Program-made: the position numbers and the translations under genes
Source: a bacterium
GTDB lineage: Bacteria > Electryoneota > JAOADG01
NCBI GenBank assembly: GCA_963681965.1
Contig: OY820579.1
Coordinates: 2,912,001 to 2,976,000 of the forward strand
Reading direction: 5' to 3'
Length of the DNA stretch: 64,000 nucleotides
Notes under the pieces: generated by a model
The model's database searches: none
What the model was told of the DNA's origin: nothing
Seen by the model: the letters and a program-made list of their open reading frames with translations, nothing else
Part shown: in pieces, positions 49,269 to 59,592 of the stretch
Layout of the letters: every line of letters starts with the position of its first letter
Numbering within the stretch: position 1 is the first letter of the stretch

Positions 49269-51773
49269 TTATTTAGAGAACGTACCGATCACAATCAGTG
49301 CCAGCAACGACAATCCGATAATGAGTGCGGTAAACCCGACACAGTACATTAGCACGCGCTTCCAAGTCGGAATCGGCAGTACTTTGATCTCGTCGATCTT
49401 CCCTTCCTGCACTAACCGATCGTACCAGAGCGGTCGTTCTTCCTTCAAATATTGTTCGCTGACACTACCGGTAAAAATCACTTCGTCTAGCGGGAAGTTC
49501 TCGCTGCGCAAGTGCTCGTTGAAAAAGTGAATCGTAAAGATAAAGCCTGTTGCAAGCAATGCCTCTTCCGAGTGGATGATATGCGCCGCATTGACGATCC
49601 AACCAGGCAACAACCGGGTAAAGAATTCCGGGAACCAAAGCGTTAAACCGGAAGCACCAATTGCAGCCACACCCCAGAATACCGCGAGATAATCAAACTT
49701 CTCCCAATAAGTGAAGCGATCAAATTTGGGTTTCTTGGCAATATGGAAGAAATATCCAATATGCTGGAAGAAATCAATCGCATCCTTCGGCTGCGGCACC
49801 ATACTGTCGGGACCCCACAGCATTTTCTTGAGCGGGAGTTGCCGTTTCGCAAATCGATAGGTCAAATTTCCCAAGTGCAGTGCAAAGTACATGAACGTTA
49901 ACACTGCCGCGACGCGATGCATCAATGCCATCGTATCGAGTCCGAGGAAATTGTGTGCAATCCAGTACGCCAGTGCTGTATGGCTGTATTTAAGCGGTAA
50001 CCCGGTCATCGCCAGTGTTAAAAAGCTTACAATGACGATGCCGTGAACCACCCGGTCGTATACGCCAAACCGGCGATAACGGAATTCGCCATGCCACCGT
50101 TTGTGCGGTCCGTGACGAACCCGATCGATCATTTGTCGACCGATCCAAGCGAGTGTATGGATACCAAAAATCGCCAGTGTGATGAGCAATAACCACTTCA
50201 TCATAAAGTGGATCGCATCCAATACCGGGTGCCCCGATGGTGCCATTGGATCGTAATGTTGCAATTGCGCAACGAAATTGGCATTCGCGTTCTTATGGCA
50301 TTTGGCACAGGTTTGGACGATGCGTTGCCGTGAAATCGAAGAGGCAGGATTGTCTTTCGGCAAAATCAGATGGTGATCGTGACAGGAAATACAGGTAGCA
50401 AATTGCTCGCCCTGATATCCCAATGAATATGCTTTGCCGTGATAAGTATTCAGATATCCTGCTACGACGTTCGGATTGATTTGAAAACGCATCGTGACTT
50501 CACGATTCGCGTGACACGATCCGCAGAGTGAGATTAATGTTTGCCCGGTAAAGCGACTACTGATGCGTTCGATTTTTCGTTCGCCGTGACACGTGATACA
50601 GGTCGGGGCTTCGGAATGTCCTTTGGCAAAAGCGATCCCGTGGGCACTCCGTTCGTAATCTTTGAATTCTTTGACATGGCAGTTCGTGCACGTCAATTTC
50701 AACTTGGCTTCGGCACGTTTCTTCGGATCGGGAAGTTTAAAGTGGTACACATGACATTCGGTACAATTTGCTTGACCACCGGTGGCATTCACCATCATTG
50801 CCTTGCCGTGTGCAGTATTATTCTCCATCCGGTGACGTTCGTCGGCATGACACGTTAAACAGGTGCCGGGGATCGTCGGTTTAACGATACCAGTACCACT
50901 CTTCCCCATCTCCGTTGAATGACCGGTATGGCAGGCGGCACAAGTCATTACTTTTGCATCGACACCACTCTTGCGGTGAACGGTCTGCTCGTAACCCGTG
51001 TGACAGTTGCTGCAGGTCTGATCCATACGATCGATATGAACTTTCGAACGCGTATCTTTTACTGCAAATATTTCATGATTGCCATGGCAATCGATACAGA
51101 TCGGTGCTTTGGAATTACCCTTTTTCACCTGATCGAAGTGATGCGATGTTAGATAATTCTTCGATTGCGGTTGATGGCAGGTATTGCATCGATCGACGAT
51201 TTTCAGTCGCCAATCGGCTGGAAGCATGTTTCCGCGTTCGTTTTTGTCGTGAGCATCGTGGCAGCTTGTGCAGGATACGACAGCCTTCCCGGATTTGGCA
51301 TTGCCATGAATTGAAGAATTGAATTTCTTGACTTCCAATGCGTGGCACACACCGCATACTTTGCGGGTATCCGGTTGTTTGTTGATTTCGTGGGTACCGT
51401 GGCACTGCTTGCAATCGGGGATATTGGTAAAACCGCGTTGTTTTAAATGATCGGCAAATCCCGCCATAAATTTCTTCGAGGCGTCGGCATGGCAATCCCC
51501 GCAATTTACCGGTTTGTATGGTTTAAAATGCGGAACATCATCGAAATTACCAGTTCCGTGACAATCGGTACAGGACTGAGAACGATGCATCGACGAATCG
51601 AAGCCAGTTTGAAATACTCCGACATTGCGATTGTCGGCGCTTTTCAAAGTGGTGTCGGAATGGCATTGAAAACAGTTCGAATTATCCGACCAATTCGTCT
51701 CGGCGGCGTAGTTTAGCATCGGTAAACTACCGAATATCAATAGCGCGAGTAAGAAAACAGAGTAGCGTTTCAT
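49269..51773 (-). CDS. Multihaem cytochrome c (17 CxxCH) fused to a C-terminal cytochrome b (FdnI/HydC-type) domain, CbcL-like
   Basis: Signal peptide from ATG 51773; 17 CxxCH counted; membrane domain RVVHG...LAMTGLP...HRVAA...FTYWEKFDYLAVFWG...IIHSEEALLA..FIFTIHFF. Confidence 0.9.
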   Translation of the reverse strand: MKRYSVFLLALLIFGSLPMLNYAAETNWSDNSNCFQCHSDTTLKSADNRNVGVFQTGFDSSMHRSQSCTDCHGTGNFDDVPHFKPYKPVNCGDCHADASKKFMAGFADHLKQRGFTNIPDCKQCHGTHEINKQPDTRKVCGVCHALEVKKFNSSIHGNAKSGKAVVSCTSCHDAHDKNERGNMLPADWRLKIVDRCNTCHQPQSKNYLTSHHFDQVKKGNSKAPICIDCHGNHEIFAVKDTRSKVHIDRMDQTCSNCHTGYEQTVHRKSGVDAKVMTCAACHTGHSTEMGKSGTGIVKPTIPGTCLTCHADERHRMENNTAHGKAMMVNATGGQANCTECHVYHFKLPDPKKRAEAKLKLTCTNCHVKEFKDYERSAHGIAFAKGHSEAPTCITCHGERKIERISSRFTGQTLISLCGSCHANREVTMRFQINPNVVAGYLNTYHGKAYSLGYQGEQFATCISCHDHHLILPKDNPASSISRQRIVQTCAKCHKNANANFVAQLQHYDPMAPSGHPVLDAIHFMMKWLLLITLAIFGIHTLAWIGRQMIDRVRHGPHKRWHGEFRYRRFGVYDRVVHGIVIVSFLTLAMTGLPLKYSHTALAYWIAHNFLGLDTMALMHRVAAVLTFMYFALHLGNLTYRFAKRQLPLKKMLWGPDSMVPQPKDAIDFFQHIGYFFHIAKKPKFDRFTYWEKFDYLAVFWGVAAIGASGLTLWFPEFFTRLLPGWIVNAAHIIHSEEALLATGFIFTIHFFNEHLRSENFPLDEVIFTGSVSEQYLKEERPLWYDRLVQEGKIDEIKVLPIPTWKRVLMYCVGFTALIIGLSLLALIVIGTFSK

Positions 51774-51894
51774 GGGAAATTTTCCACAATCTTTCGATGA
51801 ATAACTCGCGAATATATCTATAGAACGCTTTTCTAACAAATCCAATCCGAATCAACTTTAATTTTTTGGTTCTACTATGCTCCGATCGGATTGA

Positions 51895-53307: not shown

Positions 53308-53545
53308 GTTAACCTCATGATAAAACAACTACCGAATAAACTTGAATAGTATGAATTTATCAAGTTACCTATTCCAATTCTATCAAACAATGATTTTATC
53401 CATGTGACAAACAATATTTTGGTTTTCTAGGGCAATTTTTGCGACCGATCGGTCGGAATAATTACTACTATCTCCTCTGGAAATGGTAATTTTATCAATT
53501 AGGAAATGAGTTTCGTATAATTGAACAAGATAGAGGAATGATACA

Positions 53546-53761
53546 ATGAAGGGAAAAGTTGCCATTATGAAGGAAATCGGATTATACGTCCTAATTGTCG
53601 CGGCGTGGTTTGCTTTGCAGCGTTGGATCTTACCACGTATGGGGGTCTCGACTTGAGCTTCTCAAGCCTGTGCTCCGGCGGAGACACAATCCAATACGAA
53701 AGCAATCGAAACAAAATCACTACCAAGTCATAACCAAATAAATTCTGCAGATGTAAAATAA
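53546..53761 (+). CDS. Candidate small membrane selenoprotein (71 aa; in-frame TGA at 53654-53656)
   Basis: GAGG RBS; MKGKVAIMKEIGLYVLIVAAWFALQRWILPRMGVST-U-ASQACAPAETQSNTKAIETKSLPSHNQINSADVK-TAA; SECIS-like hairpin; terminator immediately after the TAA. Confidence 0.65.
53669..53688 (+). promoter_or_regulatory. Bacterial SECIS-like hairpin
   Basis: TGTGCTCC-GGC-GGAG(A)CACA starting 12 nt after the UGA; G-led apical loop about 20 nt from the UGA. Confidence 0.6.
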
Positions 53762-53786
53762 AAAAAGGGGCATCATTGATGCCCCT
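53761..53786. terminator. Hairpin between convergent genes
   Basis: A-run followed by AGGGGCATCA-T-TGATGCCCCT. Confidence 0.7.
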
Positions 53787-53804: not shown

Positions 53805-54293
53805 TTATCTCTCGTCAGGATCTGCCATGGGTTTCGGACCTCGACCTGCCCAAGGCGGTGGACCCATTGGGTTATCACAACGAGGACCCATCGGGCAATC
53901 GCCTCTCATTGCACCAGGACCAAAAACAGGACCACGTCCCTTTCGCATACCGGGGTGCATTCCACGATTCATGCGGGGATGCGGAGCCGCTGCACCAAGA
54001 TGATGTCGCGCTTTTACCAGTTCGCCCTCGGCTTCAGCTTCTTTTCCCTCTTTCAACAACTTCTTCGCGTTGTCGATATCTTTCTGAGCATTCTTCATCG
54101 CTTCTTCGCGCAGCTCTTCCATCGCTTTCATCCGAATCGACATTTTCTCAAGTCGCTTTTCCCAGTTGTCGATTCTTTCTTTTACCGATGGTGGATCTTT
54201 TTTATCCGGCATTTTCTTGTCGTCGCCAGCCAGTGCTCCTGTTACCCAACCCAACGCGAGAACCATCGCGAATAGGATCATATACTTCTTCAT
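53805..54293 (-). CDS. Exported coiled-coil protein with Gly/Met/Pro/Arg-rich tail (Spy/CpxP-like composition)
   Basis: Signal peptide, charged helical core, low-complexity C-terminus; GGAGG RBS. Confidence 0.7.
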   Translation of the reverse strand: MKKYMILFAMVLALGWVTGALAGDDKKMPDKKDPPSVKERIDNWEKRLEKMSIRMKAMEELREEAMKNAQKDIDNAKKLLKEGKEAEAEGELVKARHHLGAAAPHPRMNRGMHPGMRKGRGPVFGPGAMRGDCPMGPRCDNPMGPPPWAGRGPKPMADPDER

Positions 54294-59226: not shown

Positions 59227-59228
59227 AG

Positions 59229-59592
59229 TGGAGGCGGTGGGAATCGAACCCACGTCCGAAGTTAGGTCACCGTTCAATCTACAGGCTTAGGACCGGTATT
59301 ATTTCTCGCTACTCGGGGAGCACTGGTCCGGCTTCCGAATAACCAGCCACCTGAAGTTTTCGAGGGACGCCCGGTGGCGCACGTCCCCTTAGCCCATCGA
59401 AACGACGGCTGTGCCGAACCGGTTAGGCGCGGGTTCGGTTCGCCGAGCGCTTATATCTCTTTAGAGATTAAGCTGCCAGTGCATACGAGTAATCGTTGGC
59501 ACTTCTGAGTGTGGTTGCGTTTTGACGAGGGACAACCATCCCCGGCCTGCATGAATCGACCCCCGTAACCCCGTCGAAGCCAAGTCGCCCCC
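59229..59592 (-). ncRNA. ssrA: tmRNA; tag peptide ANDYSYALAA
   Basis: 5' GGGGGCGACTTGGCTTCGAC; 3' GTGGGTTCGATTCCCACCGCCTCCA; internal GCC AAC GAT TAC TCG TAT GCA CTG GCA GCT TAA. Confidence 0.95.

Follow-up and report, generated by a model that had tools for sequence, protein, structure and literature searches.

A candidate small membrane selenoprotein with a Sec-x4-Cys motif, encoded across an in-frame UGA and conserved in many anaerobe-rich phyla

We analyzed a 64,000-nucleotide stretch of DNA (the window) in which the plus strand at 53546/53567–53761 encodes a protein of 64 to 71 amino acids with one N-terminal helix, an in-frame TGA, a Cys, and a polar tail. The elements listed in the original prediction (a ribosome-binding site, a transmembrane helix, the in-frame TGA, a Cys five residues on, and 34 open codons) are all present. 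A consensus scan upstream gave a sigma-70-like promoter candidate (TTATCA, 18 nt, TATAAT; 53492–53521, plus strand) that is a pattern match only, with 10 of 12 positions matching, and the scanned region held four such patterns, close to the shuffle mean of 2.6. Two ATG codons are candidate starts. The ATG at 53546–53548, from which the protein had been predicted to begin, follows a Shine-Dalgarno-like AGAGGAA (53532–53538) by 7 nt and would give 71 residues with Sec as residue 37; the ATG at 53567–53569 would give 64 residues with Sec as residue 30. Because 45 of 103 members have their ATG 29 codons upstream of Sec and another 34 have it 28 codons upstream (79/103 together), the second is the likelier start. 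We therefore number residues from 53567, which is probably the family start, and regard 53546, with its better Shine-Dalgarno sequence, as a possible one.

In the 64-residue form, the AlphaFold2 model has a single helix, predicted to be transmembrane, at residues 2 to 24 (53570–53638), with Trp14 and Pro23 invariant in the alignment. Mean pLDDT over residues 1 to 20 was 92 and 91, and the residues outside the helix are predicted to be disordered (pLDDT 50–66). An L-P-[RK]-x-G-[VI]-x-T linker (53630–53653), in which P23 and G26 are invariant and L22 and T29 reach 90% conservation or more among 105 sequences, leads to the TGA at 53654–53656, which we read as selenocysteine from the conservation of the TGA column and the presence of Cys in homologues. 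The Cys codon (TGT, 53669–53671) falls at position +5 from Sec, forming U-x4-C, and the polar tail of 34 codons (53657–53758), coding by its codon-position bias, ends at a TAA (53759–53761). The gene lies alone, between a gene for a protein with a T9SS tail and a convergent 162-residue gene whose product is secreted, rich in Met, Pro, and Gly, and contains two Cys. A G+C-rich hairpin between the convergent genes (53766–53786) had been cited as a terminator placed at the TAA rather than at the TGA. This argument proved weak: the terminator scores on the minus strand, where the T-run follows, and the plus strand shows a preceding A-run and only a weak T-run after the stem. The hairpin thus serves the convergent gene, and for the small gene it may be a shared terminator at most.

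A word search with the single protein yielded no candidate relatives and was replaced by profile searches. The family core is W-x2-L-x4-L-P-[RK]-x-G-[VI]-x-T-U-[ML]-x3-C. The Sec column held TGA in 21 of 21 best matches from a profile search of 61 related genomes, and a single TGA occupied the site in all 28 matching genomes among 79 of the phylum, counts that come from related genomes and hence not from independent samples. No TAA or TAG was seen at this column in the profile search of homologues. A degenerate DNA pattern permitting TGA, TGC, or TGT gave 79 TGA, one TGC (L116, a Cys form), and no TGT among the 80 loci listed, from many phyla; these loci were preselected for Cys at +5, so the 79:1 ratio is no census and, because that Cys was a pattern requirement, it cannot be counted in them. 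Among 86 protein-database matches, 70 stop exactly at the Sec site, while 14 carry Cys, one Ser, and one Trp. Both kinds of protein had been mentioned in the original prediction, as short proteins ending in LPxxGxST and as forms with Cys at the Sec position, and both are thus borne out. Of the best 161 representative sequences, 140 match the motif, with 113 Cys, 20 Trp, 2 Gly, 2 Arg, 2 Ser, and 1 Leu at this site. TGA translated under other genetic codes is the probable origin of the Trp and Gly forms, and several such proteins also end in W.

Conservation of the protein continues past the TGA. All 103 loci have at least 15 stop-free codons after it in this frame, as against 58% and 52% in the two alternative frames. 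Of 26 phylum loci gathered with no requirement for this Cys, 24 carry it at +5. Ser at +2 is encoded by both TCN and AGC codons across the family, and substitutions in the tail region are distributed over codon positions 3/1/2 as 46/31/23%. The genome also holds the machinery for selenocysteine insertion that the original prediction had proposed to look for: searches found selB (363 bits) and selA (481 bits), selD contains an in-frame TGA of its own and is itself Sec-containing, and a tRNA-Sec with anticodon TCA is present. Elsewhere in the window TGA is an ordinary stop that closes 10 of 28 long ORFs, on which basis we rejected an alternative genetic code (TGA as Trp or Gly). Across the phylum, selA occurs in 74 of 79 genomes and in 26 of 28 family carriers, the remaining two being fragmented assemblies; because selA is present in 74 of 79, its co-occurrence with the family is uninformative.

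Just downstream of the TGA, folding places a SECIS-like hairpin at 53669–53688 (plus strand), in which 53669–53676 pairs with 53680–53688 in eight base pairs with a bulged A at 53684 and an apical loop GGC (53677–53679). The hairpin begins 12 nt and its loop 20 nt after the TGA, and the structure is exactly the one originally described (8 bp, one bulge, a G-led loop, 12 nt past the TGA). The bacterial SECIS model, as quoted in a 2026 inventory (PMC13188914), places the apical loop 16 to 37 nt from the UGA with a G among the first two loop positions, and the geometry of our hairpin agrees with it. By itself the hairpin is within chance (−10.4 kcal/mol, z = −0.91; 32 of 200 shuffles fold equally well), and its significance comes from its conservation across roughly 100 loci. 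When we scored each sequence for a stem of at least 5 bp and a loop of 3 to 8 nt that starts 17 to 34 nt from the UGA (counted from its U) and has G as its first or second base, 81 of 103 members had such a hairpin, compared with 16.1 ± 4.0 in dinucleotide shuffles (maximum 27 in 30 sets). Mean folding z was −1.01 downstream of the TGA vs −0.08 upstream. A single consensus structure for all 103 sequences was dropped, since the register varies by clade (loop start 20–30 nt); we therefore used the per-sequence test together with one register class. In that class (41 sequences, chosen by GGA at positions 27–29 alone), 78% of cells paired vs 55.9% when shuffled, and covariation was 0.555 vs 0.201, a value matched by 0 of 500 shuffles and by none of the slid partners (≤0.188). 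Double changes occurred at all eight stem pairs, so that the hairpin is kept beyond the TGA with compensatory changes. We conclude that the locus is very probably a real gene for a small single-pass membrane selenoprotein, whose UGA would be decoded by SelB and tRNA-Sec by way of this hairpin. The earlier proposal of a mini-selenoprotein that annotation would cut short or miss is supported: we checked all the outcomes that it had listed as refuting, and none of them spoke against it.

The family matches no described one in the collections that we searched. Against Pfam, neither the window protein nor the 105 members gave a family match, and against NCBIfam, including NF045695, neither did the window protein, 10 Cys forms, or the 105 members; the hits in both, and in a PDB profile search, were transmembrane-helix noise. 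No counterpart appears in the 2026 inventory of 119 prokaryotic selenoprotein families (PMC13188914), and the deep-Sep and BSepDB supplementary lists may hold more candidates. Identity with OS_HP1 or OS_HP2 of an Olavius symbiont (PMC1976440) was considered and set aside only through the absent Pfam and NCBIfam match. The ESM Atlas contains a "hypothetical protein" cluster of 123 members (score 0.88), which we take as a lead only, and a representative protein library returned 2070 clusters at E ≤ 0.001. By record titles, the carriers among the matches listed belong to Desulfobacterota-type bacteria, Planctomycetota, Acidobacteriota, Armatimonadota, KSB1, Zixibacteria, Chloroflexota, Verrucomicrobiota, and Spirochaetota, and the cultured carriers among them are Geomobilimonas luticola JCM 17780, Pelotalea chapellei DSM 13688, and Geobacter sp. 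OR-1. The family is thus large, occurs in many anaerobe-rich phyla, and is apparently undescribed.

To relate the protein to its surroundings, we surveyed the genes around 105 family loci. The counts are soft, since loci were grouped as BLAST clusters, one representative of each was scanned against Pfam, and flank lengths were unequal. A thioredoxin neighbors the family gene in 20 of 105 loci, and in one locus (L079) a thioredoxin is fused in frame to the tail of the small protein. An ECF sigma factor with a zf-HC2/RsrA-like (ZAS) anti-sigma factor is present in 16 of 105; the anti-sigma proteins are about 90 residues long, contain zf-HC2, match TIGR03988 with E values of 1e-8 to 1e-10 that fall short of its cut-off, and are often accompanied by thioredoxin. 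In 15 of these loci, from two distant lineages, the small gene is the first of an operon that continues with an optional thioredoxin, the ECF sigma factor, and the anti-sigma factor, and in the 16th, a Cys form, it comes after the sigma/anti-sigma pair. In one family, all nine loci have a conserved promoter-like motif ahead of the small gene, as does one locus with no linked sigma factor; this motif differs from the SigR-type promoter consensus, which gave only two scattered matches upstream of the operons in nine loci. Other neighbors are an ArsR-type regulator just upstream on the same strand (15/105), a same-strand upstream rhodanese (12/105, often alongside the ArsR-type regulator), AhpC/TSA peroxiredoxins (9/105), OsmC (4/105), and a nearby AcrB-type pump (5/105). 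At least one of these neighbors is present in just 47 of the 105 loci, and the window locus lacks every one of the redox neighbors. Of note, the ArsR and rhodanese neighbors suit metal(loid) or sulfur chemistry as well as peroxide or disulfide chemistry.

Across the family, the N-terminal flank of the helix has a mean net charge of −0.57 and the C-terminal flank of +1.03. A short, uncharged-to-acidic N terminus followed by a more basic C-flank would place the N terminus outside and the tail inside, an orientation also suggested by the cytoplasmic look of the neighboring thioredoxins, which have no signal peptide. With this topology, the Sec-x4-Cys pair would lie on the cytoplasmic side, at the membrane surface. 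In some members the frame continues upstream through a basic N-terminal stretch that, if translated, would oppose an N-out topology. We propose that the selenolate would attack an oxidant or thiol-reactive compound (a peroxide, lipid hydroperoxide, disulfide, electrophile, or reactive sulfur species), that Cys+5 would resolve the product into a selenenylsulfide, and that a cytoplasmic thioredoxin would then reduce it. Placement of the gene beside thioredoxin and/or the ECF sigma and ZAS anti-sigma factors in several lineages would make it part of thiol-stress operons. When the Cys form from L116 and the thioredoxin of the same locus were supplied as alignments, complex prediction gave a score of 0.00 (mark 0.32), a result that speaks neither for nor against binding. 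We infer that the protein most likely works as a Sec/Cys redox pair tethered to the membrane and regenerated by thioredoxin, a mechanism to which we give about an even chance. Taken together, a selenoprotein with a thioredoxin-recycled redox role is the best explanation overall, with a probability of roughly 0.7.

Several other explanations bear on the same observations. One is that there is no selenoprotein: the UGA would end a micro-protein of 29 to 36 residues, and the conserved downstream part would act at the RNA level, for example as an attenuator or terminator. Gene callers do stop at the UGA in those 70 of 86 entries, and the window hairpin alone is no better than shuffled sequence. 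However, Cys homologues read through and retain the downstream motif, the open frame (103/103), the codon periodicity, and the two Ser codon families point to translation, and the hairpin has SECIS geometry with no T-run; together with the in-frame thioredoxin fusion and the complete Sec machinery in the genome, this leaves the micro-protein very hard to credit. If the protein does contain Sec, its Sec/Cys pair could instead bind a soft metal or metalloid (Hg, Cu(I), As, or Cd) at the membrane face and act as a transporter chaperone or sink rather than as a redox catalyst. The upstream ArsR-family HTH regulator (15/105 loci) and the nearby AcrB-type pump (5/105) are consistent with this, as are a Met directly after Sec in 59 of 103 members and the Met/Pro/Gly-rich secreted product, with its two Cys, of the convergent gene in the window. 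The heavy-metal-associated (HMA) motif is G-M-T-C-x-x-C, which G-[VI]-x-T-U...C loosely resembles. Against metal binding, there is no Pfam HMA match, the spacing is x4 instead of x2, thioredoxin and the ZAS/ECF module are commoner neighbors, and the ArsR family also includes sulfur and redox sensors and is therefore no exclusive pointer to metals, so that we consider this role unlikely.

The upstream rhodanese (12/105), often with an ArsR-type regulator, would also fit a membrane-tethered sulfur or selenium carrier that takes persulfide or perselenide from it, but most loci, that in the window included, lack a rhodanese, and settings with thioredoxin or with ECF/ZAS are no less common; we regard a carrier as quite improbable. 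A similarly small chance attaches to a sensor for the adjacent ECF/ZAS pair, in which rapid oxidation of the selenol would be passed to the anti-sigma cysteines and free the sigma factor. The lead position of the small gene in 15 operons of two distant lineages and the promoter-like motif shared by all nine loci of one family favor such a sensor. However, the pair is near only 16 of 105 loci and the copy in the window genome is unlinked to it, RsrA-type anti-sigma factors sense oxidants directly, and membership in the operon equally fits a regulon target. We thus retain the thioredoxin-recycled redox couple as the preferred reading.

If confirmed, the protein would add a large family to the prokaryotic selenoproteome, and, if the architecture is as predicted, the first bacterial selenoprotein to consist of nothing but a membrane anchor plus a disordered tail with the Sec/Cys pair. 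Annotation misses the gene or truncates its product to 29 to 36 residues, and selenoprotein finders built on listed families would be blind to it because it has no known domain. The family would further link selenium use to ECF/ZAS thiol-stress regulation. It may also offer a test case for recoding: 44 of 103 members hold two UGAs about 25 codons apart, the first presumably read as Sec and the second as stop. The three cultured carriers make the family experimentally tractable.

Among known systems, TsoA, listed as an "LULAXC motif selenoprotein" (NF045695) in Table 1 of the 2026 inventory (PMC13188914), is likewise a recently recognized bacterial selenoprotein with a short Sec...Cys motif. 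Its L-U-L-A-x-C, as given there, has Cys at +4, whereas T-U-[ML]-x3-C has Cys at +5, and NF045695 matched neither the window protein nor 10 Cys forms at E ≤ 10, nor the 105 members at E ≤ 1. The thioredoxin-recycled Sec peroxiredoxins and the GPx-like and Trx-fold proteins share with our family a Sec paired with a resolving Cys, the use of thioredoxin as reductant (putative here), and genes near thioredoxin, AhpC/TSA, or OsmC; they differ in that our family has neither a thioredoxin fold nor any other and no match to theirs, and its pair lies in an unstructured stretch by a membrane helix. HMA proteins differ as well, in their Pfam match and in x2 rather than x4 spacing. SigR-RsrA thiol-stress modules, in which an ECF sigma factor is paired with a cytoplasmic ZAS anti-sigma factor and the regulon includes thioredoxin genes, resemble the 16 of 105 loci with an ECF sigma factor, a zf-HC2 anti-sigma factor, and often thioredoxin, but a small selenoprotein is no known component of them, and the conserved upstream motif is unlike the SigR consensus. 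Eukaryotic SELENOS and SELENOK are the closest match in likely working mode: they too are small proteins that cross the membrane once, by an N-terminal helix, and bear Sec in a disordered tail, and the Cys174–Sec188 selenenylsulfide of SELENOS has been proposed to confer reductase activity (PMC3628699). They are unrelated to our family in sequence (no Pfam match), carry Sec at the C-terminal end rather than 5 to 6 residues past the helix (here 34 from the C terminus), space the pair as C-x13-U rather than U-x4-C, and have the SECIS element in the 3′UTR rather than, in bacterial style, within the coding sequence. As a long shot, the family could be a widespread bacterial counterpart of the SELENOK/SELENOS type and the smallest membrane-tethered selenoprotein, whose cytoplasmic-face selenol would be the first to sense oxidants or electrophiles arising from the membrane, relaying oxidation to the cytoplasmic ZAS anti-sigma factor to turn on the ECF thiol-stress regulon and being reset by thioredoxin. 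Such a relay, if true, would be a bacterial analogue of the redox relays that run from peroxidases to transcription factors.

The open reading frame behind the original prediction of a small membrane selenoprotein is present on the plus strand with every feature claimed for it. Read directly from the sequence, a Shine-Dalgarno-like AGAGGAA (53532–53538) precedes an ATG at 53546, a second ATG follows at 53567, and a hydrophobic stretch is encoded between the start and an in-frame TGA (53654–53656); the frame then passes a TGT codon for Cys (53669–53671) and reaches a TAA stop (53759–53761) after 34 sense codons beyond the TGA. With the TGA read as selenocysteine (Sec, U), the product has 71 residues from the upstream ATG or 64 from the second; a sigma-70-like promoter at 53492–53521 is a pattern match only. 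The hairpin proposed to follow the TGA is also real, beginning 12 nt 3' of it: a stem of 53669–53676 with 53680–53688, in which A53684 is bulged, carries a GGC loop (53677–53679). By itself this hairpin is unremarkable (–10.4 kcal/mol, z = –0.91), with equal folding in 32 of 200 shuffles. The accompanying argument from a terminator just after the TAA is weak because the T-run of that G+C-rich hairpin (53766–53786) sits on the minus strand, where it has its terminator score; the hairpin is primarily the terminator of the convergent 162-aa gene (53805–54293, minus strand).

The 4.24-Mb contig that contains the window also carries selenocysteine machinery, namely selB (363.6 bits, above cut-off), selA (481.4 bits), selD, and a tRNA-Sec (63.8 bits; anticodon TCA by ARAGORN). 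The selD gene, outside the window at G000:C1:4177383–4178309 (G000 being this genome), has one in-frame TGA, which marks its product as a predicted selenoprotein too. TGA is otherwise an ordinary stop: of the window's 28 stop-to-stop ORFs with 250 codons or more, it ends 10. Because 74 of 79 phylum genomes have selA, its presence in 26 of the 28 carriers of the small gene is uninformative. Two selA matches occur in all nine genomes of one phylum family (G007, G012, G017, G021, G025, G029, G033, G037, and G041); in eight both are full-length, above cut-off, and on separate contigs, the second in G041 being a contig-end fragment. G006, G011, and G016 likewise have two matches above cut-off.

The in-frame TGA is retained across homologs. 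When the read-through protein was searched against six-frame translations of 61 related genomes, 21 matches emerged (E ≤ 3.8e-4), each with exactly one in-frame TGA and an alignment extending beyond it; in the 20 retrieved loci, the TGA occupies a single column preceded by G-[VI]-x-[TS], with a Cys five residues after Sec (Cys+5) in 19. A profile search of the 79 phylum genomes matched 28, with TGA in 28 of 28, and gave no match in two families of the phylum (0 of 16 genomes each). We further scanned one genome per species with a degenerate DNA version of the family motif, in which the Sec codon could be TGA, TGC, or TGT, and found at least 120 stretches. Among the matches listed, 80 loci had 79 TGA, one TGC, and no TGT; the pattern required Cys+5, which is therefore not countable in these loci. 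By record naming, the 80 listed comprise 40 Desulfobacterota-type loci (Desulfobacterales, Syntrophobacter, and Geobacter relatives), 17 from Planctomycetota (a Kuenenia MAG included), four from Acidobacteriota, three Armatimonadota-type, two from KSB1, one each from Zixibacteria, Chloroflexia, Spirochaetes, Verrucomicrobia, "Proteobacteria bacterium", and "Candidatus Puniceispirillum sp.", and eight unclassified. Throughout, related genomes are non-independent samples, and several counts rest on loci chosen by motif pattern.

Protein conservation continues past the TGA. At least 15 codons without a stop follow Sec in the reading frame of all 103 loci (median 27); the corresponding figures for the other two frames are 58% and 52%. 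Cys+5 is present in 24 of 26 phylum loci, and the Ser two residues after Sec is encoded there by TCN in 19 and AGC in two. In 28 moderately diverged pairs, differences fall on codon positions 1/2/3 at 31/23/46% in the 15 codons after Sec versus 30/8/62% upstream, a split that points to a tail under weaker constraint, yet with coding periodicity. One Pirellulales MAG locus (L079:1151–1660, plus strand) lacks a stop and is a natural fusion, its tail reading in frame into a WCGPC thioredoxin domain. In 44 of 103 members (L014–L141) the gene's own stop is also TGA, about 25 codons past the Sec codon, giving natural pairs of differently read UGA.

The hairpin, too, is a property of the family. In the 45-nt segments flanking the Sec codon, mean folding z was –1.01 on the 3' side and –0.08 on the 5' side (n = 103). 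The published bacterial SECIS model, as excerpted from PMC13188914, has a G within the first two positions of an apical loop that lies 16–37 nt from the UGA. Under a version of this model (stem of 5 bp or more; 3–8 nt loop starting at positions 17–34), the minimum-energy structure was such a hairpin in 81 of 103 sequences, versus 16.1 ± 4.0 (maximum 27) in 30 sets of dinucleotide shuffles; the commonest loops were GGA, AGGU, AGUU, GGUC, and GGU. Because the register varies among clades, we tested covariation in a single register class, an ungapped alignment of 41 post-TGA sequences picked solely by GGA at positions 27–29; it also takes in sequences of other registers, the window's own included, which were scored as breaks. 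In this class 78% of cells were paired versus 55.9% in shuffles, and 82 versus 34 were changed on both sides. The covariation score of 0.555, versus 0.201, was reached by none of 500 shuffles, slid partners gave at most 0.188, and compensatory changes occur at all eight pairs.

The original prediction also mentioned short proteins ending at this site and others with Cys there, and both exist. A profile of 105 members, searched in a 5.8-billion-cluster set, retrieved 86 proteins, of which 70 terminate right at the Sec site and the others read on, 14 with Cys, one with Ser, and one with Trp; where given, source names are "hypothetical protein", except two spurious transporter names. A 1.84-billion representative set gave 2070 matches at E ≤ 0.001, 139 of them at E ≤ 1e-10. 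We inspected 161 of its sequences (146 new ids plus P0002–P0016), and 140 satisfied the motif expression: among these listed matches the Sec column holds C in 113, W in 20, G and R and S in two each, and L in one, with Cys+5 in 136, counts that are no Sec:Cys ratio since the top listed matches are biased to full-length forms. Together the two collections give a classical Sec/Cys pair. The W and G forms appear to be TGA codons translated with other genetic codes. About 20 predictions have Trp at the Sec site (P0093, P0095, P0102, P0174, and P0187 among them), several also ending in W, which suggests gene callers using a TGA = Trp code on those contigs.

Across the 105 members (64-aa numbering), W14, P23, G26, and U30 are invariant, and L17, L22, T29, and C35 reach 90% conservation or more. 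AlphaFold2 run on this alignment predicts a helix at residues 2–24 (pLDDT >90 over the first 20) and no structure beyond. An ATG is found 29 codons ahead of Sec in 45 members and 28 codons ahead in 34, together 79 of 103, which favors 53567 as the probable start in the window. Mean net charge is –0.57 over the first five residues and +1.03 over the stretch –7 to +15 relative to Sec, a difference suggesting, under the positive-inside rule, that the N-terminus is out and the tail in.

The window's small gene stands alone, without redox neighbors, among genes for a T9SS-tail protein, a multihaem cytochrome c, the 162-aa secreted protein, a tandem Usp, and kdsA. The cytochrome (49269–51845, minus strand; 858 aa) has many CXXCH sites, with cytochrome c7, c3, and MtrC-like Pfam matches, and a C-terminal membrane part weakly like cytochrome b561. 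The 162-aa protein has no Pfam match; it has a signal peptide, a Lys/Glu-rich coiled stretch, and a Met/Pro/Gly/His-rich C-terminal part containing two Cys, and could be a periplasmic metal-binding protein. A tmRNA gene lies at 59228–59592 (minus strand; tag peptide ANDYSYALAA).

We clustered the ORFs flanking the 105 loci by BLAST and scanned cluster representatives against Pfam and NCBIfam. At least one of the following neighbor types occurs in 47 loci: thioredoxin (20), ECF sigma with a ~90-aa zf-HC2 anti-sigma matching the RsrA model below cut-off (16), ArsR-type HTH (15), rhodanese (12), AhpC/TSA (nine), and OsmC (four). The thioredoxins have no signal peptide, score above the TIGR01068 cut-off where scanned against NCBIfam, and have WCGPC, WCAPC, WCMPC, or WCQPC active sites; in 11 of the first 20 loci, the thioredoxin gene comes directly after the small gene. 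The non-canonical WCMPC and WCQPC occur in thioredoxins just after the small gene in one phylum family (L016, L018, L023, L024, and L025), and relatives have WCAPC and WCGPC. The most likely chemistry is a putative Sec/Cys redox couple at the membrane that would be reset by thioredoxin. The pair may instead bind metal, or the small protein may act as a sulfur or selenium relay. A third putative role is that of sensor for the ECF/ZAS pair. The gene order is small gene, thioredoxin, sigma, anti-sigma in nine of nine loci of one phylum family, and small gene, sigma, anti-sigma in six Desulfobacterales-type loci. In the nine loci of that phylum family, the small gene is preceded by a conserved motif, G[AC]ATCC-14 nt-GCATC[TC]AA, ~180–240 nt before the Sec codon; L016, L018–L025, and L028 are these and one more, from another family, with no sigma gene within its 1.5-kb flank. 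This motif, absent from the window, resembles consensus sequences of ECF-type promoters and may be one.

Beyond transmembrane noise, Pfam and NCBIfam gave no match for the window protein, 10 Cys forms, or any of the 105 members; a PDB profile search found no relative, and the ESM Atlas neighbor is an unnamed cluster. Full-text literature searches returned nothing relevant, with figures, supplements, and Haft & Tolstoy 2025 outside their scope, so that an earlier description is possible. No such family appears in the portions covered of deep-Sep (PMC12013277), BSepDB (PMC13326102), Zhang et al. 2006 (PMC1794560), the Olavius paper (PMC1976440), or Haft & Gwadz. Table 1 of a 2026 inventory of 119 prokaryotic selenoprotein families (PMC13188914) has no small single-pass membrane protein and no T-U-x4-C entry; its nearest by name, TsoA (LULAxC, NF045695), was ruled out by model scan and spacing. 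We conclude that, with high probability, the window gene is a genuine selenoprotein gene, and it is the founding example here of a broad family that lacks annotation.
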